Assembly: GCA_963820525.1 (NCBI GenBank) | Contig: CAWGAA010000001.1 | Coordinates: forward strand, 1,376,001 to 1,440,000 | DNA: 64,000 nt | Direction: 5' to 3' | Origin: an uncultured Spirochaetota bacterium | GTDB lineage: Bacteria > Spirochaetota > Spirochaetia > SZUA-6 > Fen-1364 | Shown: positions 42,412 through 52,504 of the stretch, one piece after another | How the letters are laid out: every line of letters starts with the position of its first letter | Position numbering within the stretch: position 1 is the first letter of the stretch | Notes under the pieces: generated by a model | What the model was told of the DNA's origin: nothing | Databases searched by the model: none | What the model saw: the letters and a program-made list of their open reading frames with translations, nothing else | Position numbers and translations under genes: made by a program

Positions 42412-43113
42412 TTACGGTTTCCCGGATCCGATCGAGACCGTGCGCTTGTAGCTGGCCTCCATATGCGCGCGCATGGCGCGAAACGCCATTTCAGGATTTT
42501 TCTCCCGGATCGCCTTGAGGATCTGGGAATGCTCCCTGAACGCCTTTCGGTGATCCTCGATTGTGCGGGGGGCGTAGCGGAGAGTCTTGACGATGGCTTC
42601 CACGATGACGGGCATGATTCTCATGATGACGGGGTTCCTTGTCGCCCTTGCGATGCTCCCGTGAAACTCCAGCTCGACGTCCACCCAGCGCTCGTCCCGG
42701 GTCATGATGCCCGCCATCTTCTCCAAAAGCGCCTCCAGTCTCTCCACGTCGCCCTTGACCGCGCGCTCGGCGGCCAGGCGGGCCACCTCCGGCTCCAGGA
42801 TTCGTCGCGCCTCCATGAGGGACAGCGGCAGATCGCGCTCCGGGAGAAAGTCCAGCCCGAGGGGATCGTTGGCGACCCCGGGATTCTTCATGACGAAGGT
42901 TCCCTTGCCCCGTACGATCTCCACGATATTCTGGGAGACGAGGCTCTTGACCGCCTCCCGGACGGTCGGCCTGCTCACTCCAAAGAGTTCGGCGAGCTGC
43001 ATCTCATTGGGCAGCTTATCCCCGGCCTTCAGCTTCTGGCCTCGGATCAACGCCTTGATGTGGTTGGCGGCTTCGCGCGAGAGGTGACTCTGAGTGGTGA
43101 GTTTCTTGTACAT
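42412..43113 (-). CDS. FadR/GntR family regulator
   Basis: LPNEMQLAELFGVSRPTVREA; FCD domain FHGSIARATRN. Confidence 0.92.
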   Translation of the reverse strand: MYKKLTTQSHLSREAANHIKALIRGQKLKAGDKLPNEMQLAELFGVSRPTVREAVKSLVSQNIVEIVRGKGTFVMKNPGVANDPLGLDFLPERDLPLSLMEARRILEPEVARLAAERAVKGDVERLEALLEKMAGIMTRDERWVDVELEFHGSIARATRNPVIMRIMPVIVEAIVKTLRYAPRTIEDHRKAFREHSQILKAIREKNPEMAFRAMRAHMEASYKRTVSIGSGKP

Positions 43114-43186
43114 GGTGCTACCCTACCGGGGGCCTTTCCGGCGGCCGGGCCGCCCATATTTCCGCCGCTGTCCACGGCGGCCAGGT

Positions 43187-43214
43187 TTGACAACAGACGA
43201 CAAACGAGTATGAT
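43187..43214 (+). promoter_or_regulatory. Promoter of kdgK-eda
   Basis: TTGACA-16-TATGAT; spacer ACAGACGAC resembles the 36989-37005 spacer. Confidence 0.6.
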
Positions 43215-43269
43215 AGGACGCCAGTCCCATGACGGCTGATCTTCCCTTCACTGAATATGGAGGTTAAAC

Positions 43270-44400
43270 ATGGACGATCTAAAAATCAAGAAGGTAGAGG
43301 ACTGCCGCTATGACGGGGTTTCCCTGGGCGAGGTGATGATGCGGATCGATCCGGGAGACGTGCCGACGGCGCGGGCGCGCAGCGCCCGCATCTGGCACGG
43401 AGGCGGGGAGACCAATGTGGCCGAGGGGTTGTCCTCCTGCTTCGGGCTGCGGACCGCCGTGGTGACGGCCCTCGTCGACGACGGCGTTGGGCGAAACATC
43501 GAGTGCCAGCTCCGGGAGGCCGGGGTCGACACCTCGCACATCATCTGGTATGCCACGAAGGGCTCCGGCAAGCTCGTCACCGACGGCAAGGGCACTCTCC
43601 ACAATGGCATCAACTTCACCTGGAAGGGCAAGGGGGTTCTGCCGTCGATCACCGAGTACTACCGCGCACACACCCCGATCCGTGAGATCGAACCCGGGGA
43701 CGTGGACTGGAAGGGTCTCTTCGCGCAGGGGGTTCGCTGGTTCAATACCGGGGGAATCTACAACTGCATCTCGCCGTCCTCCACGCTCGTCGCGCGGGAG
43801 GCGCTGAAAGCGGCGAAGGATGCGGGCACCGTCACCGCCTACGATCTGAACTACCGCTCGAAGGTCGAGCCGAACAAGGAAAAGGCGCGGGAGAACAATC
43901 GCGGAGTGGTTCCGTTCGTCGATTTCCTGGCGGGCAACCAGAGTGACTTCGAGGACTCTCTCGGCGAGGAATGCAGGAAAGTGGGAAAGGATCAACCCTT
44001 CGAGCATTGGCTGGATGCGTACTCCGAGATGCTGCGGCGGGTGGCCAAGAAATACCCCAACCTCAAGCTGATAGGAACCCAGCTGCGCGCGGCGTTGAGC
44101 GCGGACAGGATCAACTGGGGCGCCGTGCTCTACGACCCTTCCGAAGACAAGATCCACCTGGCGGCGGTCCGCGAAGGGGTGGAGATAATGGACAGGACGG
44201 GCGGCGGGGATTCGTTCGCCTCCGGCGTTGCGGCCGCCCTGATGAAGGGGAAATCCCTCGCCGACGCGGTGCAGTGGGGCGCCGCACACGGCATCTGCGT
44301 GCAGGAAACGCCGGGAGACGTCTCTCTGGTGAGGCAGGGGGACGTGGAGGCGGAGGTCGCCCGCGCGCTGAAGGGCGGCGGTGTGAGCGCCCTTCGGTAG
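43270..44400 (+). CDS. kdgK: 2-keto-3-deoxy sugar acid kinase (PfkB, KdgK-like)
   Basis: LGEVMMR, GGGETNVA, YDLNYR, DRTGGGDSFASG, ETPGD. Confidence 0.8.
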   Translation: MDDLKIKKVEDCRYDGVSLGEVMMRIDPGDVPTARARSARIWHGGGETNVAEGLSSCFGLRTAVVTALVDDGVGRNIECQLREAGVDTSHIIWYATKGSGKLVTDGKGTLHNGINFTWKGKGVLPSITEYYRAHTPIREIEPGDVDWKGLFAQGVRWFNTGGIYNCISPSSTLVAREALKAAKDAGTVTAYDLNYRSKVEPNKEKARENNRGVVPFVDFLAGNQSDFEDSLGEECRKVGKDQPFEHWLDAYSEMLRRVAKKYPNLKLIGTQLRAALSADRINWGAVLYDPSEDKIHLAAVREGVEIMDRTGGGDSFASGVAAALMKGKSLADAVQWGAAHGICVQETPGDVSLVRQGDVEAEVARALKGGGVSALR

Positions 44401-44428
44401 GCGGAGCGGAGTCGAGAGGAGAAAAACC

Positions 44429-45193
44429 ATGGCGGGATACAGAAGGGACCGGAAGCGGGTGGATGCCGCGATGCGGAAGAGCGGAGTGTGCGTCGTGATG
44501 AACAAGAACCACGTCACGAAGCCCGAGCACCTCGTGACGACAATGCAGGCAGTATACGAGGCCGGGTACGTTGCGGAATGCACTTTCCGCATTGACGCGG
44601 CCCTCATCCGTGAGGCGATGCAAGAGCTTACGAAAATCCGTGACAGGATGAGCGGCGAGCGGCCGTTCGTTCTCGGCGTTGGAAGCGTGATCAACCCCCG
44701 GGAGCTTGAGTCTGCCATCGATATGGGCTTCGACATGATCGTAGCGCCGGCGAACGTGATGGGGGGATGCGGAACCGGGGCGGATTTCGTGCGAATCGGG
44801 CACAAGGCCGGGGTATTCTGCGCACCCGCGGTGTTCACCCCGACGGAGCTCAACTACTTCATCGAAAGGGACGACGGCCTGGAGCCCGACGCGATCAAGA
44901 TCTTCCCCGCGGGCTCCCACGGGCCGAAGGGCGTGGCGGACCTCCTGGCTCCGTTCGTTCGCGACAGGCACAAGGGACGCATCGTCATGCCCACGGGCGC
45001 GGTCGACTTCGTCACCGGTCCCCAGTACATCAAGGCAATATCCGAGCGCGGCTATTTCCCCGTGCTGGGAATGTCGGCTCCTCTGAAGCTGGTGGAGACG
45101 GAGAAAAAACCCGGGGACGCAGACGTGGTGCGGAGATCCCTGGAGGATTTCACCAAGAAGCTGGCGGCGGCGAAGGCCGAGCTGGGCATGTAG
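44429..45193 (+). CDS. KDPG/KHG aldolase-like
   Basis: ECTFR, GVGSV, FTPTE, IKIFPA (Schiff-base Lys), MPTGAV. Confidence 0.8.
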   Translation: MAGYRRDRKRVDAAMRKSGVCVVMNKNHVTKPEHLVTTMQAVYEAGYVAECTFRIDAALIREAMQELTKIRDRMSGERPFVLGVGSVINPRELESAIDMGFDMIVAPANVMGGCGTGADFVRIGHKAGVFCAPAVFTPTELNYFIERDDGLEPDAIKIFPAGSHGPKGVADLLAPFVRDRHKGRIVMPTGAVDFVTGPQYIKAISERGYFPVLGMSAPLKLVETEKKPGDADVVRRSLEDFTKKLAAAKAELGM

Positions 45194-45204
45194 ATACGGA
45201 AACG

Positions 45205-45230
45205 GGGAGGCGGCCGTCTGCCTCTCCGCG
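45205..45230. terminator. Hairpin between convergent genes
   Basis: CGGGGAGGCGG-CCGT-CTGCCTCTCCG. Confidence 0.45.
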
Positions 45231-45239
45231 GCTTCAATT

Positions 45240-46214
45240 TCAACGCGCGAGCACGCTCGGATTCACGCAGGACAAGGGCGGTTTACCCGAAAGCACCAGC
45301 ACCGCGTTTCGCGCGGTGGAGCGCTGAAGCTCCGCTTGAGATTCCTCGCTGTACCACGCCATGTGATCGGTCAACACCACATTTGTCAGCTTGAAAAGCG
45401 CGCAATTCTTCTTCGGGGGTTCGGGCTCGTAGACATCGATGCCCACAGCCGCGATCTGGCCCGTCTCGAGCGCGGTGACCAGCGCGTCGGGATCCACAAC
45501 CTTGCCGCGGGAGGTGTTGACCAGAATCGCGGTGGGCTTCATCCGTGCGAACTGGCCCGGTCCGATCATGTGGAGGGTCTGATCGTTGAGGGGCGCGTGC
45601 ACGGATATGAAATCCGCCTGGGCGCACAACTCGTCCAGCTCCACGCGGCGAACCCCGTGCGCCGCCGCCTCCGCGTCCGTGACGTAGGGATCGAAGATCA
45701 ACACCTCCGCAAGGCCGAACCCGCTTACTTTGCGGCGAAGCGTCCGGGGAATCGCCCCGAAGCCGACAAGGCCCAAAGTCTTTCCCGCGATGCGGTGGAC
45801 CGGCTCCTTGGACCCGATGTCCCACAGGCCGCTTCGCACCTGGCGGTCACGGCTCGCCGTGCGGCGGACGCAGCTCAACAGAAGCGCGAGGGCGTGATCG
45901 GAAACCTCCTCGTTGCAGTACCCACGGACATTGCACACCGGGATCCCCCTCTCGGTCGCCGCGGGGACGTTCACGTTGTCCACGCCGACGCCGTAGCGGG
46001 AGATGACCTTGCAGCGGCTCATCGCGGCTATCGCCTCTTTGCCAACGGGCGCCATCCGCGTGATGACCCCGTCGGCTTCGCGGCACGCCTCCGCCACGTC
46101 GGCTTCGGTCTTGCATTCGCTGAGGATGAGCTCGACTTCCCCCAGCGCGGCAAGCTCCTTGCGCTCCGGCTCATACGTCGCGTAGCCAAGATCGGTGACT
46201 ACAATCCGCAGCAT
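45240..46214 (-). CDS. D-2-hydroxyacid dehydrogenase (CtBP/SerA-like)
   Basis: RYGVGVDNV, GLVGFGAI, VNTSRG, DVYEPEP, TDHMAWYSEES. Confidence 0.9.
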   Translation of the reverse strand: MLRIVVTDLGYATYEPERKELAALGEVELILSECKTEADVAEACREADGVITRMAPVGKEAIAAMSRCKVISRYGVGVDNVNVPAATERGIPVCNVRGYCNEEVSDHALALLLSCVRRTASRDRQVRSGLWDIGSKEPVHRIAGKTLGLVGFGAIPRTLRRKVSGFGLAEVLIFDPYVTDAEAAAHGVRRVELDELCAQADFISVHAPLNDQTLHMIGPGQFARMKPTAILVNTSRGKVVDPDALVTALETGQIAAVGIDVYEPEPPKKNCALFKLTNVVLTDHMAWYSEESQAELQRSTARNAVLVLSGKPPLSCVNPSVLAR

Positions 46215-46601
46215 GTCGGCACCCTCTCTCCGCGCCGCTTGCAGGCGCATCGCCCGGCTTAAGCGGCGGCTGGAATCCTTGCGCGCCTCTCTATCGCTCT
46301 TTCTTCTATGATGTCAGATATCTGACGTCTCGAATAGAGGGCCCATGGGTGACCACGAGCCACCTGCTTTCCATTGATGCGGCCAGGAGGGAATTACCCC
46401 AAATCGCGGCTCGAGGGCGGCGCCCCCGCCGGTGAGACAAATCCGATGAAGCGCATCCCCAGCCCTCCAATGAAGCAAGCACACCGTTGTGCAGCGCGAG
46501 CCGCCGGGCGAGGCGCAGCATCCGTTGTGCGATGGAAAATCATCGACTATAATGAAAGGCGCTATCGACTCACCGCCGTTCTTATCCGGAAAGGAGTGCC
46601 G

Positions 46602-47270
46602 ATGCAGCCCATAAGCTTCAACCTCGCCGACCTGGGACTGGGACAGTGGATTGTCATCGGCTTGAGCGTTCTGGTGGGAGTCTGGTTCGTCGCGGGAATC
46701 GCGGTCAACAGGAGAGTGGGGCGAAGGGCGAGCGCCTGGCTCGCCTCAGGCCTGGATGGGTACACGTGCGGCCAGCCGAGCTGGGTGGACCTGGCCACCG
46801 CCGCGGTAGTGACGAAAGCCGCGCGTCCGGCACTTCCCCTGGAAAGGATTGAGGCGATTTTAGCATTGGAGAGGAGAGAGAACCTTCCTCTCTGGCTTTT
46901 CCAGCACGCGGCTGGAAAACGGGACAGCGTGATCCTGCGCGCGAATCTGAAGAAAAAGCCGGTTTTCGAGGCGCATCTGATTCCTTCAAGTGAATATGCG
47001 CAGATTGCCGCGTATAGTCACCGCGAGCCGCCGCTTCAGAGGGGTGAAGATCGAGATGGATTCACGCTATTCGTCGGCGGAGATGCGAGCGCGCCGGCCA
47101 TCCAGGCCCTTGAAGCGCTCAAGGAGCGTTTCAAAGGATCGCTCATCAGGGTGAGCGTGCGCGGCGAAAGCCCGCACCTGCTTTTGCACGTGAGGCTCGT
47201 CGCGCTGCGCGATGCCTCACCGGCTGTCGCGTTGGCACTGGACGAGATAGCCCGAAAGAGTCAAGCGTAG
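46602..47270 (+). CDS. Hypothetical protein with N-terminal TM helix
   Basis: AAGGAG SD; WIVIGLSVLVGVWFVAGIAV. Confidence 0.65.
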   Translation: MQPISFNLADLGLGQWIVIGLSVLVGVWFVAGIAVNRRVGRRASAWLASGLDGYTCGQPSWVDLATAAVVTKAARPALPLERIEAILALERRENLPLWLFQHAAGKRDSVILRANLKKKPVFEAHLIPSSEYAQIAAYSHREPPLQRGEDRDGFTLFVGGDASAPAIQALEALKERFKGSLIRVSVRGESPHLLLHVRLVALRDASPAVALALDEIARKSQA

Positions 47271-47297: not shown

Positions 47298-48275
47298 TTA
47301 TCCGAACAGAAGCCCGGCGGTGCGCTCCAGCATGGGGATGCCCCTGATCTCCGTTTCGAACAGCGGGAGGACTGCCCGCACCCTTTCGTCGAAGAGGCTG
47401 TCGATCTGCTTCATGTACTCTTCCTGCATGGCGACCCTGTTCTTCACGAAATCGGGGATGCCGGCGCCCAGGTCCGTGCGGTCGATCTTCATGTTGACGA
47501 TCACTCCGCCCACGGGGATCCCGAAATCCTTGAACCAGTTGATGAAACGGGTCACCACTGCGATGGGCAGGGCTTCCGGCAGGGTGATGAAAAAGAACGA
47601 GGTGAGCGCTTCGTCCGTGAGGAGCTTCTTCGCGTTGCCCATCCTCTCCCGCAGGCTCACCAGGTATTCCATCAGGGGATCCTTCTCCTTCTTCTTCCTG
47701 CTGTAGGAGAGAAGGTCCTTCAGGCTCATGGCCTCCTCGCGGCTCTTGACCATCTTGTTGACCCACATGGCGTAGACTCCCGACATTCCAAGGAGCCGCC
47801 GGGCATTGGCGGTGGGAGCCGTGTCGAACACATAGGCCTCGTACTTGTCCTCGAACATGAGGTCGATCATGTTCTCGAACATGGCCGACTCCTCGAACGA
47901 AGGGTTCATGGTCGCGGACTCGACGAACTCGTCGGCCTTGGTCTTGAGCTCGGCGTACTTGAGGAACCACTCGATCTTCTCCCGTATCTCCTTTTTGGAT
48001 TTTTCTATCGTGTCGTGCGTGTCGATTTCATAGGCGGACAGGTTGGGATGGCCCGGTATCTGCGTGGGTTTGCCGAACACGTCGAGGTCGAGCATGCCCG
48101 ACAGCGAGTGCACGGGGTTCGTGGAGGCGAGCAGGGTCCTCTTGCCCTGCTGTGCGCACCACAGGGCCGCGGCGCCGGCGAGCACGGTCTTCCCCACCCC
48201 TCCCTTGCCGCCGAAAAACAGGTACTTCAATCCCTTATTTGCAGCCAGGTACTGGCGCATGGTTTTTCCCGTCAT
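47298..48275 (-). CDS. ArsA/Get3(TRC40)-family ATPase 2 (switch I Asp->Asn)
   Basis: GGKGGVGKT, STNPVHSL, FDTAPTAN, TLPEALP; ATGA-coupled to ATPase 1. Confidence 0.9.
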   Translation of the reverse strand: MTGKTMRQYLAANKGLKYLFFGGKGGVGKTVLAGAAALWCAQQGKRTLLASTNPVHSLSGMLDLDVFGKPTQIPGHPNLSAYEIDTHDTIEKSKKEIREKIEWFLKYAELKTKADEFVESATMNPSFEESAMFENMIDLMFEDKYEAYVFDTAPTANARRLLGMSGVYAMWVNKMVKSREEAMSLKDLLSYSRKKKEKDPLMEYLVSLRERMGNAKKLLTDEALTSFFFITLPEALPIAVVTRFINWFKDFGIPVGGVIVNMKIDRTDLGAGIPDFVKNRVAMQEEYMKQIDSLFDERVRAVLPLFETEIRGIPMLERTAGLLFG

Positions 48276-49251
48276 TGCTTGCCTCCGAACAGCGTTTCCG
48301 CCATCTTCTCGATCATCGGCAGCCCCGTGATGTCCCGCTCGAACTCCGGCACCTGGGCGAGGACTTCCCGACCGAACATCAAGTCTATCTGCTCCAAGTG
48401 GCCCTTCTGCATCCGCAGGCGGTTTCTCAGGTACACCGGGATATCCTGGTTGGCCAGCTCCCGCGGGATCACCCGGTTGACGATGTACCCCGACAGCGGA
48501 ACGTTGTATTTTGCGAACATCCCCGCGGCCTTCTTGGTGTCGATGATGATCATCTCCTCGGGAATGAGGACAAAGAAGAAAGCGGTCTTCTGCTTGTCGG
48601 TGAGGATGCCGGACGACATGTTGATCCGGCGCTTGATGAACTGGAGCTCTTTCAGGATCTGGTCCTCCTCGCTTTCCTTTTCCCGCTTCATTACCGCGGC
48701 AACCTGGGAATACTCCTTCATCTCCGCGCGCAATGCGGTAATCTTGTCTATCCACTCGTCGTAGACCGACGCCATGCTGAGGTAGTACAGGGCGTGCCCC
48801 AGGGGCACGAGGTCGTAGATGTAGTAGTCGTATTGGCCGCCCACAACGATGTCGACCACCGCATCGAAGATGGCGCTTTCCTCCATGGCGGGCTCGGCGG
48901 CCGCGGCCTGGATATAGTTCTCGATGTCTTCGGGGACCTTGTCCAGGCCGTACATGTCGAGGATCTTCTTTCTGATCTCATCCTGGTAGTCCTTAATGCG
49001 CTTGTCCGCGTCGATCTCCTGCGCATAGAGGTTGGGGATGATCTCCACGGGCCCTTTCCGAAGATGTCCTTCTGGAAGATGTCGGAGAGGCTCGCCTGCG
49101 GATCCACGGAGAATACCAGCACCTTTTTGCCCTGCTTGGCCAGCCAGTATGCGGTGGTGGCGCTGAAGGTGGTCTTGCCCAGCCCGCCCTTGCCGCCGAA
49201 CATGAGGTAACGGCGGTCGGGGTAGGTTTCAAAGAATTTGCGCAGCGACAT
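48272..49251 (-). CDS. ArsA/Get3-family ATPase 1, split by a -1 frameshift at ~49050
   Basis: MSLRKFF..GGKGGLGKTT..SVDPQASL..FGKGP in one frame; VEIIPNLYAQEID..YDLVPLGH in the -1 frame. Confidence 0.85.
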
Positions 49252-49272
49252 CGTGATGACTCCTGCAGCTTT

Positions 49273-49572
49273 TCAGGCCAATGCGTCGGTGAGGTCTTTC
49301 TCCCTCAGCATGCGCCGCTTCCAGGTGGAAATCTGGGGCACCACGTAAGGCAGGAGGCGCAGACTGTAGTATGGGGGAAGGATGGGAACGCCCAGCAGGT
49401 CTCCCATGGTGATGAGGATGAATAGATGCTCCATGCTGCCGCGGGTCTTGAGGGCGAAGCGGGCCATGTCGTGCCCGGCCATGCCGTACAGCACGTTCTT
49501 GACCCCCTCCATCAGCTTGCCCTTCTTTTTTTCTTCAGGCTTCTCCTGCGATTTCTCTTCCGGCATGGTCAC
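49273..49572 (-). CDS. Small CstA/ArsA-associated protein 1
   Basis: LFILITMGDLLGVPILPPYYSLRLLPY. Confidence 0.8.
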   Translation of the reverse strand: MTMPEEKSQEKPEEKKKGKLMEGVKNVLYGMAGHDMARFALKTRGSMEHLFILITMGDLLGVPILPPYYSLRLLPYVVPQISTWKRRMLREKDLTDALA

Positions 49573-49580
49573 TCCTTATT

Positions 49581-49913
49581 CTATGTTATTTCCTGGTCGC
49601 ACAGATCCGTCAGATCCCGCGGGCGTGAGAGGCTGGTCCGCCAGTCTTCGAGGCGGAACGCAACGTAGGGCAAAAGCCGCAGCGTGTAGTACGACGGGAG
49701 CACCGGAACGCCCAGGAGGTCTCCAAAAACGAGCAGGATGAAGAGCTTCTCCCTCTGCCCCCGTTCCTTCTGGACGTCGCGCACCATCTCCCAGATCGTG
49801 GCGCCGTAGAGCATCTGCCAAACGGTGCGGACCGCTTTTTTCAGAAGAGAGCGGAGGCTCCGCAGCCTCCGCCCCCGTCGATCCGTCTTTCCCTCCCTCT
49901 CCCCCTGTCTCAC
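49581..49913 (-). CDS. Small CstA/ArsA-associated protein 2 (paralog)
   Basis: LFILLVFGDLLGVPVLPSYYTLRLLPY; GTGA overlap with the cstA stop (start inferred). Confidence 0.75.
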   Translation of the reverse strand: MRQGEREGKTDRRGRRLRSLRSLLKKAVRTVWQMLYGATIWEMVRDVQKERGQREKLFILLVFGDLLGVPVLPSYYTLRLLPYVAFRLEDWRTSLSRPRDLTDLCDQEIT

Positions 49914-51679
49914 GCGGGCTTCACGGAGGCTGACGCCTGCGCGCGATATTTCCTGAAAACCTTCAAGGCATCCCAGGCCAGGATGAGGCTCGCGGCGATC
50001 AGCACGAGGCACACGGCGCCGATGATGATGTTCGCCGCCATCACCTGACCCACGGCCTGCTTCTGCGCCGCCGCCAGCGCAGCAGCCTTCGGCAGGTTCA
50101 TGAACAGGGCCTCATAGGCCTTGTAGAGCAGGGCGCCGATGGTGGTGATGAACATGAAAACGAATGGCCAGAGCGTCCACTGGTATTTCTTGCCCTTCGA
50201 CATGAGCCATATGGTTGCCAGGAGGAGCGCAAGGGAAGCCATGAGCTGGTTGGCGGCTCCGAACACGACCCAGATCTGCAGGAAAGGCACGATCCAGATC
50301 AAAACGAGCGTCAGAACCAGTGCGAGCAGCGTTCCGACGTGCGCGTTCTTGAGCAGGGGAATCCTGTCTCCCAGCGCCTCGGCGCTGGCCACCCTCATGA
50401 ACCGCGCAACCAGGTACATGATTGTCAGAGCCATGATCGTGAGGAATACCGAGCCATAGGCGGTTCCGAAGCCGGCGCCCAGGATCTTGTCCAGCCCCCA
50501 CTGGTTCATGAAAGCCGACAGGCCCTTGGAGAACACCGCAGCCGCCGCGCCGGCGTTTTTGTAGCCCTGGAAGCTTCCGAATGCCACGGTCGCGGTGAGG
50601 AAGGCAATGATGGCGAAGAACATCTCGAAGAACATCGCCCCGCCGCCCACGAACAGGGCGTCGCTCTCCTTCTCGATCTGGCGCGCCGTTCCCGATGAGG
50701 ACACAAGGCTGTGCCAGCCGGAAACGGCCCCGCAGGCGATGGTGACGAAGAGGATGGGCCACAGGGGCCCCAGCCCGGGCACGGTGAAGGAGGTGAACGC
50801 GGGGAAATCCCCCATGCCCGGCCTCCAGATGAACAGCCCGATCAGGCCGCCGAGCACGCCCAGGGAGACGATCCAGAAGGACACGTAGTTGATGGGTTGG
50901 GCCCAGCGCCAGATGGGAAGCACGGCGCCAAAGTAGCAGATGACGATGACCATCAGGCTTCCGAGGAGCTTGGCCTGCGTGACGGAGAGGAAGACCCCCG
51001 GCCCGGTGGGAAGCTCCTTCGTGATGCCGAAGAGCCCCGTAAAGAAGGTCTTGACACCAGGCAGCGTCCCGACCCAGATGGCCACGAATGCCAGGACCAC
51101 CGTGATGACGGTGGTAAACAGGATGTCGACTTTCCACCGATAGGTCATCTGCCCGGCCAGCAATCCCACAATGATCACGAGGATAACCCCCAGGGGCACG
51201 GCGGGATTGATCAAGAGGCCGAAGCCCACCTGGGTGCCGAAGGCCCCCATGATCAGGAGCAGGTAGAAATAAATGAACATGATCAGGATTCCCCGGGAGC
51301 GCGGCGAGATGAGCTTGTAGCTGAGCGCCCCAAAGCTCTGCCCTTCTTCCCGGAGGCCAAGGATGATGCTGCTGTAGTCCTGAACCCAGCCAATGAAGAA
51401 AGTCCCGAAGATCACCCACAAAAGCGCAGGCACCCATCCCCACAGGACCGCCGTGATGGGCCCGATGATCGGTCCCAGGGCCGCGATGGACTTGAACTGG
51501 TAGCCGAAAAGGACATTGCGGTTGGCCGGCGTGAAGTCGACCCCGTCCATGAACATCTTCGCGGGTGTCGCCTTCTTGTCGTCCGGCTTGATGACCCTCC
51601 TGTCTATCGACTTCGCGTAGACAAAGTACCCGATGGCGATGAACGCCAATCCACATGCCAGGATCACCAATGCATTCAT
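49910..51679 (-). CDS. cstA: Carbon starvation protein A family transporter
   Basis: TPA..DGVDF, LFGYQFKSIAALGPIIGP, FVTIACGAVSGWHSLVSSSGT, FGAANQLMA. Confidence 0.9.
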   Translation of the reverse strand: MNALVILACGLAFIAIGYFVYAKSIDRRVIKPDDKKATPAKMFMDGVDFTPANRNVLFGYQFKSIAALGPIIGPITAVLWGWVPALLWVIFGTFFIGWVQDYSSIILGLREEGQSFGALSYKLISPRSRGILIMFIYFYLLLIMGAFGTQVGFGLLINPAVPLGVILVIIVGLLAGQMTYRWKVDILFTTVITVVLAFVAIWVGTLPGVKTFFTGLFGITKELPTGPGVFLSVTQAKLLGSLMVIVICYFGAVLPIWRWAQPINYVSFWIVSLGVLGGLIGLFIWRPGMGDFPAFTSFTVPGLGPLWPILFVTIACGAVSGWHSLVSSSGTARQIEKESDALFVGGGAMFFEMFFAIIAFLTATVAFGSFQGYKNAGAAAAVFSKGLSAFMNQWGLDKILGAGFGTAYGSVFLTIMALTIMYLVARFMRVASAEALGDRIPLLKNAHVGTLLALVLTLVLIWIVPFLQIWVVFGAANQLMASLALLLATIWLMSKGKKYQWTLWPFVFMFITTIGALLYKAYEALFMNLPKAAALAAAQKQAVGQVMAANIIIGAVCLVLIAASLILAWDALKVFRKYRAQASASVKPA

Positions 51680-51907: not shown

Positions 51908-52504
51908 ATGAAAGAATCCTTGATCCTCCTTCTCACCGCGCTTCTCTTCGCGACCCTCTTCAATCTCCTGTGCATCCTGCGCCGGGAGGGAATCTCCCGG
52001 CGTTTTCTCCTGGAAACGGCTGCGATCACGATCGTTTTCGGGCTCCTGCCGATGTTCGGCGTGGCTCTTCACCCCATTGCGTTTCTAGCGATTCTCTACG
52101 TGCTCACGATGCGCGTGCGGCTTTTCATCGATTTGGGCAGCACCCTGGCGCGCCGGGGAAACCTCACCGCCGCAGGCAGGGCTTTTTCCCTTGCCGGGCG
52201 GCTCTGGCCCGACCCCGCCGGGGTTTTGATGGTGCGCCTCAATCAAGGGGCGTGCGCCCTTCAGCGCCAAGCTCCCGAAGAAGCGATTCCCCTGCTCCAG
52301 GGAGTGCTCGAGGCAGCCGAATCGGCGCGGCTTGGCATCAAGTACCGCTCCGCCTGTCATTACAACCTGGGCATCGCCTTCTGGCGGAAAGGCATGAGAC
52401 CGGAGGCCGAGCGGGAGCTGGAAGCGGTCCAGGATCTGTGGCCGGCCTCCACGTATGCTCGTAAGGCGGAAAAAACCCTGGAGAGGCTCCGCGAGGGCGG
52501 ATAA
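51908..52504 (+). CDS. Membrane protein with C-terminal TPR repeats
   Basis: Hydrophobic N-terminus; ACHYNLGIAFWRKG. Confidence 0.75.
   Translation: MKESLILLLTALLFATLFNLLCILRREGISRRFLLETAAITIVFGLLPMFGVALHPIAFLAILYVLTMRVRLFIDLGSTLARRGNLTAAGRAFSLAGRLWPDPAGVLMVRLNQGACALQRQAPEEAIPLLQGVLEAAESARLGIKYRSACHYNLGIAFWRKGMRPEAERELEAVQDLWPASTYARKAEKTLERLREGG

Follow-up and report, generated by a model that had tools for sequence, protein, structure and literature searches.

Gene content and layout of the cluster

The window analysed here is a stretch of 64,000 nucleotides from an uncultured Spirochaetota bacterium (assembly GCA_963820525.1, contig CAWGAA010000001.1, positions 1,376,001 to 1,440,000 of the forward strand), and we describe a cluster of five genes at its positions 47,298 to 51,679. 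All five lie on the minus strand, in the order cstA, small-1, small-2, arsA-1 and arsA-2. The cluster is almost certainly a member of the cstA-cstX-arsA-homologue operon family, in the form with two small genes and two ATPase genes (2+2). The cstA gene (49910..51679) encodes a CstA-family permease of 589 amino acids (aa) (PF02554, E 1.8e-113) and is the only CstA locus in the source genome. It is followed by two genes for small proteins: small-1 (CstX-1; 49581..49913), which encodes a DUF7990-type protein of 110 aa when read from a GTG start, and small-2 (CstX-2; 49273..49566), which encodes a probable DUF7990 protein of 97 aa and is the most conserved gene of the cluster. The last two genes encode single-domain ATPases of the Get3/ArsA fold. 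The frame of arsA-1 (48272..49251) is broken near 49051, with PF02374 matching both pieces, and arsA-2 (47298..48275) encodes a protein of 325 aa (PF02374, E 1.6e-65).

The genes are tightly packed. The GTG start of small-1 overlaps the TGA of cstA (GTGA), the ATG of arsA-2 overlaps the TGA of arsA-1 (ATGA), the remaining intergenic gaps are 14 and 21 nucleotides (nt), and an AAGGAG ribosome-binding site precedes small-2. The first-pass annotation of this DNA, made from the letters alone, had described a tightly packed five-gene operon with these two overlaps and without arsB, arsC, arsD or arsR nearby. Both descriptions were borne out, and no ars gene was present among the open reading frames (ORFs) scanned from 42.4 to 56.6 kb of the window. 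A sigma-70 promoter scan of the region from 46.9 to 52.1 kb returned no sites, and the terminator-like sites in this region fall within genes.

Operons of this kind were published in 2010. In the available part of that comparative genomics study (Castillo and Saier, 2010; Int J Microbiol 2010:187373, PMC2963123), cstA stands with an ArsA homologue in 26 SEED genomes; CstX, of ∼90 aa with a single transmembrane segment (TMS), is present in 24 of the 26, and CstY, of ∼210 aa and also with a single TMS, in five archaea. Two adjacent ArsA homologues are reported there for Pyrobaculum arsenaticum and Symbiobacterium thermophilum, two paralogous CstX proteins for P. arsenaticum and Thermococcus kodakarensis, and haloarchaeal operons fall within its Cluster 17. 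The same part of the study states that the CstA, CstX and ArsA trees co-evolve, and proposes that CstX links transport by CstA to ATP hydrolysis by the ArsA homologue. The present cluster has the corresponding genes, namely a PF02554 cstA, small proteins of 110 and 97 aa, and ATPases of ∼326 and 325 aa. The small proteins were assigned to CstX by description, that is, by size, position and the possession of one hydrophobic segment. The statement in the first-pass annotation that ArsA homologues are known neighbours of cstA is thus backed by the 26 genomes of PMC2963123. Its description of the machine as undescribed is superseded by the same publication, which already holds the idea of an ATPase coupled through an adaptor to CstA.

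The interrupted frame of arsA-1

The first-pass annotation treated arsA-1 as an intact gene and overlooked a one-base frameshift. When the gene is aligned with four intact orthologues, one base is seen to be missing in GGGCCCG near 49051, and in the window arsA-1 is split over two frames (48748..49251 and 48272..49048). Read through the frame, its product has about 326 aa, and the orthologues have 323 aa. We compared the contigs of four public runs with the window across positions 48600-49500. In three of the four (records 4, 20 and 27), a near-identical bridging contig carries an extra base behind 49051 and otherwise differs from the window at 3, 5 and 0 positions, respectively; the fourth run had almost no depth at the site. 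Because near-identical contigs from three runs carry the base, the break is best explained by an error of the assembly or by a variant that is rare.

It is improbable that the module is inactive in the source organism, which would be the case if a real frameshift had removed its sole hydrolytic subunit. The one-base deletion is present in the window sequence, and the contig data are compatible with a deleted form that also exists in the reads. However, the bridging contigs restore the frame in three public runs while differing from the window by only 0-5 bases, and the rest of arsA-1 is without decay, being 72-90% identical to its intact orthologues. A programmed frameshift was ruled out by the in-frame orthologues and by the occurrence of the missing base in the near-identical contigs.

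Conservation and variants of the locus

A DUF7990 match was found in 7 of 41 genomes from the family and order to which the window belongs. Five of these, the window's genome included, have the 2+2 cluster, and the other two have cstA with one small gene and one arsA. In one-per-species genomes, relatives of small-2 occur at no fewer than 581 loci. The locus counts given here use the best 80 of these at least 581 relatives, with each feature counted at loci that have enough contig on the side concerned; because the 80 are the closest relatives of small-2, the counts describe one clade. Both arsA-1 and arsA-2 were found downstream in all 71 loci with at least 2.2 kb of downstream contig, cstA lay upstream in 60 of the 63 loci with at least 2.6 kb of upstream contig, and a second small gene was present in 58 of 63. 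All five genes occurred in fixed order and strand in 49 of the 55 loci with room on both sides, and the form with one small gene and two ATPase genes in 4 of the 55.

A search that started from the divergent 1+1 type gave a second clade of 62 metagenome loci. Here cstA is upstream in 51 (the other 11 have less than 750 nt of upstream contig), a single arsA is downstream in 59 (the other three contigs end there), and two small genes are present in 14; no second arsA was found in any of the 62. The counts in the 80-locus set and in this second clade place the arrangement far beyond chance. The co-occurrence of the genes elsewhere, which the first-pass annotation had made a test of its proposal, was thus found by a neighbourhood survey to be tight in the relatives, the 80-locus set and the second clade. 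Its 1:2:2 stoichiometry is not universal: the 2+2 form dominates the 80-locus set, but 1+1, 2+1 and 1+2 (small plus ATPase) forms exist as well. Comparative evidence of this kind argues firmly that the five genes act together.

The same linkage bears on whether the ATPases are a pair of general stress holdases or chaperones that happen to lie beside cstA without any functional tie. Get3 does have ATP-independent holdase activity, according to the available parts of two studies (PMC6593721, PMC3613179), but the overlapping genes and the near-invariant linkage to cstA and CstX in two clades make such an accidental neighbourhood very improbable.

Identity to the window across the 80 loci was highest for small-2 (75-90%), followed by the C-terminal part of ArsA-1 (63-84%), ArsA-2 (60-81%), CstA (47-80%) and small-1 (48-69%); two companion proteins described below, the TPR protein and the 46602 family, were at 34-51% and 21-34%. 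The top rank of small-2 would suit a component that has more than one surface for binding. Apart from the assembly frameshift, the window shows nothing out of the ordinary for this widespread system.

As a separate observation, a variant with a single small gene of the small-2 type before arsA-1 and arsA-2 was seen at loci L054, L067, L075, L077, L083, L087, L090, L095 and L097. Its hosts are metagenome-assembled genomes labelled Deltaproteobacteria, Syntrophaceae, Desulfomonilaceae, Thermodesulfobacteriota and Spirochaetes, with one unclassified bacterium, and its CstA is 47-50% identical to that of the window.

The small DUF7990-type, CstX-like proteins

With 52% identity across 73 aa (E 2e-25), small-1 and small-2 are paralogues, and they do share the core LFIL..GDLLGVP.LP.YY.LRLLPY that had been picked out from the letters alone. 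Since the region upstream of an internal ATG in small-1 is conserved among orthologues, the GTG start is favoured for this gene. Relatives of small-2 form at least 6094 clusters (90% identity) at E ≤ 0.001, and the small-protein family forms 560 clusters at 50% identity with the same threshold. PF25952, which is DUF7990, stands as a precomputed match on all 120 listed small-2 homologues (76-95% identity), and the nearest Atlas clusters of small-2, scoring 0.95-0.96, are also DUF7990. Our own Pfam search at E ≤ 10, with a library that lacks PF25952, gave no match for small-2 or for the long small-1 form of an orthologous genome (G034), a plasmid collection searched with small-2 gave no match, and the source names of 10 divergent family members were all “hypothetical protein.”

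The only model in the local library that detects the small proteins is NF041419, the “cory-CC-star protein.” At E ≤ 0.001 it detects 95 of 96 family members, and among 14 control genomes scanned it also matches in Haloferax volcanii; since haloarchaeal operons are among those of Castillo and Saier, this match indirectly supports a kinship of the small proteins with the published CstX. Small-1 scored 39.5 bits (E 4.1e-10) and small-2 33.3 bits, below the cut-off of 80. The NF041419 family is named for a Cys-Cys C-terminus, which is absent from both window proteins. Judged by these scores, the small proteins are a sister branch of this family and not members of it.

An AlphaFold2 model of small-2, built with 96 diverse sequences, reached a predicted local distance difference test (pLDDT) score of 78 and consists of a helix at residues 13-58, a Pro-rich loop at 59-64 (GVPILPP) and a second helix at 65-87. 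The hydrophobic stretch LFILITMGDLLGVPILPPY of small-2 has a Kyte-Doolittle 19-residue maximum (KD19) of 1.59 at residues 48-66; the corresponding maximum of small-1 is 1.89. The hydrophobic core of small-2 spans residues 48-75 of 97, is interrupted by a near-invariant Gly-Asp and by prolines, and is followed on its C-terminal side by ∼22 conserved basic residues. The hydrophobic stretch could be a marginal membrane helix or the tip of a re-entrant hairpin. Foldseek comparison of the model with the PDB returned nothing at E ≤ 0.001, and the best match of a wide VIA search (Z 4.9) aligned the long helix alone.

Several architectural variants of the family were also noted. An extra N-terminal domain of ∼110 aa is carried by the small protein of same-order relatives (L013:5308-5964, minus strand; L014:3617-4324, plus strand) and by the family representatives P0122, P0155 and P0131. 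It has a C-x-x-C and a pattern reminiscent of thioredoxin; Pfam gives just DUF1525 (E 0.051), the scan lends no support to an ArsD-like reading, and small-1 of the window is without this domain. In one DUF7990 branch (P0247, P0254, P0183, P0197 and P0266), the C-terminus is a tail rich in His, ...SDHEHHLHG(L/V). Tails that bind metal may recur in the DUF7990 family; the His-rich tail is absent from the two window proteins, as is the Cys-Cys C-terminus. Finally, P0293, P0295 and P0296 (180-213 aa) consist of two tandem DUF7990 units, first of the His-tail type and then of the small-2 type, so the two small-protein paralogues can be naturally fused.

The paired ATPases

ArsA-1 and ArsA-2 are 32% identical to each other. 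Among solved structures, their best sequence matches are the archaeal Get3 proteins 3ug6 and 3zq6; ArsA-1 (as the G034 orthologue) and ArsA-2 align with 3ug6 over their full length, at E 3.3e-60 and 3.8e-50, respectively. Where 3ug6 reads CDFC, the two ATPases read PDYL and PDFV. The alignment thus confirmed the earlier remark that both lack the CxxC of Get3, which in the eukaryotic type is a zinc motif at the dimer interface. TIGR00345 (TRC40/GET3/ArsA) matched ArsA-2 with 209.8 bits and the C-terminal piece of ArsA-1 with 152.6 bits, both above its cut-off of 135. The models for the BagA/BagB pair, NF053622 and NF053621, reached at best 40.4 bits (cut-off 400) and 28.6 bits (cut-off 521).

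The nucleotide-binding motifs differ between the two proteins and are nearly invariant within each. Orthologues of ArsA-1 have the P-loop GGKGGLGKTT (81 of 83), switch I SVDPQAS (82 of 83) and switch II YDLVPLGHA (79 of 81), and those of ArsA-2 have GGKGGVGKTV (76 of 77), STNPVHS (78 of 78) and FDTAPTANA (75 of 77). At the presumed catalytic position of switch I, Asn therefore stands in 78 of 78 ArsA-2 orthologues, as against Asp in 82 of 83 ArsA-1 orthologues. Switch I of 3ug6 is STDPAHS, and in the second clade xDPAHN is found in 58 of 58 single ATPases. From the alignment with the STDPAHS of 3ug6 and from the numbering of the yeast protein, we take this Asp to be the counterpart of D57 of yeast Get3. 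D57 is catalytic in the yeast protein, and its D57N form binds ATP without hydrolysis, according to the available part of PMC12506534.

The ATPase pair is thus clearly asymmetric in its sequence motifs. By sequence, ArsA-1 and ArsA-2 most likely form an asymmetric heterodimer. Given the Asp/Asn difference and the behaviour of the D57N form of Get3, the pair looks like a subfunctionalised heterodimer, in which the ArsA-1 site would be hydrolytic and the ArsA-2 site would only bind ATP.

We also considered whether the ATPases serve arsenite or antimonite resistance together with an ArsB or Acr3 encoded elsewhere. Both match the Pfam ArsA_ATPase family, but the evidence against it is consistent. 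The model for the arsenical pump-driving ATPase, TIGR04291, gave 97.1, 53.4 and 34.1 bits, far below its cut-off of 650. Each of the proteins consists of one domain; ArsA-1, as read in the window, is free of Cys, and the single Cys of ArsA-2 shifts in position from orthologue to orthologue. A second ArsA-type ATPase, of two domains, lies outside the window, ∼190 kb from the cluster (G000:C1:1234695-1236566), with three PF02374 stretches in one open frame of 650 aa. It is probably the true arsenical ATPase of the genome, and its presence disfavours an arsenic role for the pair. With no ars genes nearby either, such a role is hardly credible. We conclude firmly, in agreement with the first-pass annotation, that the five-gene cluster is not an arsenic system.

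Companion membrane proteins and other neighbours

The first-pass annotation suggested that the flanking genes for membrane proteins might belong to the system, and the locus survey supports this suggestion for both. A gene on the plus strand (51908..52504), divergent from cstA, encodes a membrane-anchored TPR protein of 198 aa (TPR_12, E 1.3e-9) with a hydrophobic N-terminus (KD19 2.63 at residues 6-24). Homologues occur in 45 of the 55 loci with room on both sides, 24 of them divergent upstream of cstA and 21 just after arsA-2, and also in all four close relatives with the cluster.

On the other side, a gene convergent with arsA-2 (46602..47270, plus strand) encodes a single-pass membrane protein of 222 aa, here called the 46602 protein, and the profile of its family matches an ORF directly beside the operon in 19 of the 80 loci. 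The protein has no Pfam match (up to E ≤ 10) and no NCBIfam match, and its family profile found chance matches alone (E ≥ 1) among the sequences of solved structures. Its AlphaFold2 model (pLDDT 90, predicted template-modelling score 0.82) has an N-terminal membrane helix and an alpha/beta domain. With VIA-align, the model matched chain 4 of 7tm3, the rabbit multipass translocon (Z 16.7, root-mean-square deviation 2.6, 208 of 222 residues), chain 4 of 9i78 (Z 15.1), chain 7 of 6w6l, the TMCO1 translocon (Z 11.0), and mycobacterial TtfA, 6t84 (Z 10.7); a Foldseek search with the model gave E 1.3e-7. From the residue ranges and the available part of PMC7505659, which describes a large globular cytosolic domain in CCDC47, chains 7tm3_4 and 6w6l_7 appear to be CCDC47. 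The 46602 protein therefore has, at the level of fold only, the N-terminal helix and alpha/beta domain of CCDC47 and TtfA. It is a candidate CstY, which it resembles in size and topology.

The ORFs flanking the cluster in the region from 42.4 to 56.6 kb include a flavodoxin-like protein, a transglutaminase-like protein, an FHA protein and a GH53 hydrolase. Beside the cluster, positions 42412-46250 of the window hold genes for a GntR/FCD regulator, a PfkB kinase, a KDPG/KHG aldolase and a D-2-hydroxyacid dehydrogenase, and pyruvate is a possible product of this gene set. Pyruvate is carried by some CstA proteins. A search of the sequences of solved structures with CstA gave no match.

Possible coupling to transport or handling of membrane proteins

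Gene content, gene order, conservation and the motif asymmetry of the ATPases were observed directly, and two main readings of them have to be weighed. The one that we favour, although tentatively and with about as much doubt as confidence, is that the ATP cycle of a Get3-fold dimer is coupled through CstX hairpins to CstA transport, which it would energise or gate. The ATPase dimer would sit at the cytoplasmic face of CstA. The CstX proteins would hold it there, with their hydrophobic hairpin tips inside or against the membrane part and their conserved polar helices touching the ATPases. The ATP-driven closing and opening of a dimer of the Get3/ArsA type would be relayed via CstX to CstA, with the result that uptake would be energised or gated. 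A parallel for such coupling would be ArsA, which converts the ArsB carrier into an ATP-driven pump. Coupling to transport is favoured because of this ArsA-ArsB precedent, the invariant linkage to cstA, the conservation of small-2 over its whole length and the co-evolution reported in 2010.

A number of points weigh against such coupling. All of the contacts, the direction of coupling and the substrate are what we infer. With NF011590, the “pyruvate/proton symporter CstA” model, cstA scored 155.5 bits against a cut-off of 1188, so that the substrate is left unassigned by this model. ArsA is not known to need an adaptor to act on ArsB, and the E. coli relatives of CstA are not known to need partners of this kind. 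With a single hydrolytic site, the dimer would resemble a switch or a chaperone more than the motor of a pump; moreover, the TPR and CCDC47/TtfA-fold companions and the kinship with archaeal Get3 point towards membrane-protein handling rather than energisation. The arsA-1 gene is broken in the window assembly. Gene fusions give weak Rosetta-stone hints, in the form of a clean CstX2-ArsA1 fusion (P0302) and a fragment in which the C-terminus of CstA is fused to CstX (P0196), but both are singletons, and three of five inspected ArsA fusions look like frameshift artefacts. A complex prediction for ArsA-1 (G034 orthologue) and ArsA-2 with small-2 as partner gave a median of 0.35, against 0.50 for a control in which ArsA-2 was replaced, a result that speaks on neither side of the question of binding.

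The other reading is one of biogenesis or targeting: a Get3-like heterodimer would capture the hydrophobic hairpin of CstX post-translationally and deliver it to the membrane or to CstA, with the TPR and CCDC47/TtfA-fold proteins as receptor or assembly factors and with ATP spent on insertion or assembly. We regard it as a serious rival, although on balance the less likely of the two, and much of the anatomy would suit it. The hydrophobic segment of CstX ends ∼22 residues before the C-terminus, in the manner of a tail anchor, and its core is short, broken by Gly-Asp and Pro, and only moderately hydrophobic (KD19 1.59-1.89). The closest solved relatives of both ATPases are archaeal Get3 proteins, and at least one archaeal homologue without CxxC dimerises and binds tail-anchored proteins, according to the available part of PMC6593721. 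A hydrolysis-dead subunit would resemble the trapping D57N state of Get3. The companions, too, carry folds or repeats of eukaryotic membrane-protein biogenesis (Z 16.7, 15.1 and 11.0 for the 46602 model; a TPR protein in 45 of 55 loci).

Against biogenesis, small-2 is conserved at 75-90% over its whole length across phyla, which exceeds what would be expected of a simple client. CstA-family proteins are widespread without the partners (found in 7 of 14 control genomes, E. coli among them), so a dedicated insertion system is not generally required. The gene with the CCDC47 fold adjoins the operon in just 19 of the 80 loci. TtfA, for its part, is named a transport factor in its entry title, and an accessory role at a working transporter would fit the 46602 protein equally well.

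A bolder version of this idea would make the cluster a prokaryotic membrane-protein handling machine that parallels the systems of the eukaryotic endoplasmic reticulum (ER). It would combine an asymmetric one-site Get3-type dimer, a membrane TPR co-factor and a CCDC47-fold protein, and the ATPase would pull the DUF7990 hairpins, as subunits or plugs inserted after translation, out of CstA or push them into it. Taken as a whole, this version is rather doubtful. If it were true, the operon would show what prokaryotic Get3 homologues are for, and CCDC47 would gain a bacterial counterpart in a defined genetic context. Few genetic contexts of prokaryotic Get3/ArsA homologues that have no arsenic partners are as clear as this operon. 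As a compact system of five to seven genes with one membrane partner and natural 1+1, 2+1, 1+2 and 2+2 variants, it is tractable for testing whether the ATPases drive or gate a transporter or insert a hairpin.

Comparison with known systems

A literature search found no paper on the operon later than 2010, and PMC2963123 was the sole bacterial “CstX” paper found. The search returned nothing for PF25952, cory-CC-star, NF041419 or CstA-associated, nothing relevant on DUF7990 or on carbon starvation protein together with Get3, and no link among CCDC47, TtfA and bacterial Get3. Several known systems share individual parts of the cluster. BagA/BagB of Mycobacterium tuberculosis (6bs3) likewise consists of two adjacent single-domain ATPases of the Get3 fold, but its similarity to the ATPases of the cluster is weak (6bs3, E 2.2e-6). 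In the ArsA-ArsB arsenite pump, an ATPase of the same fold is likewise attached to a secondary carrier, and the cluster has a pair of separate genes as the counterpart of the pump's two unequal nucleotide sites. Unlike that pump, the cluster is without metalloid-binding cysteines, ArsB, Acr3 and ArsD; its ATPase halves are separate, and hairpin proteins are added.

Tail-anchor targeting by Get3/TRC40, with Get1/Get2 and the TPR protein Sgt2, resembles the cluster in that the latter also encodes a hydrophobic small protein and a TPR protein. In contrast to that pathway, the cluster's ATPases have no CxxC and form a putative heterodimer with one presumably dead catalytic residue; no gene resembling Get1/Get2 was recognised, and the module goes with a single transporter gene instead of serving many clients. 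CCDC47, of the ER multipass translocon/PAT complex, and TtfA have, like the 46602 protein, an N-terminal membrane helix and, behind it, a cytoplasmic domain of mixed alpha/beta structure. The 46602 protein lacks the C-terminal coiled-coil of CCDC47, and there is no similarity in sequence.

The closest known counterparts are the cstA-cstX-arsA operons of 2010, which share with the cluster the CstA permease, a small protein (∼90 aa) that has a single hydrophobic segment, single-domain ArsA homologues of ∼330 aa and the absence of ars genes. The available part of the 2010 account makes no mention of an Asp/Asn asymmetry, a TPR companion or a CCDC47-like fold. The Asp/Asn asymmetry of the paired ATPases, the CCDC47/TtfA-like fold of the 46602 protein and the TPR companion are thus the points that the present analysis adds to this operon family.

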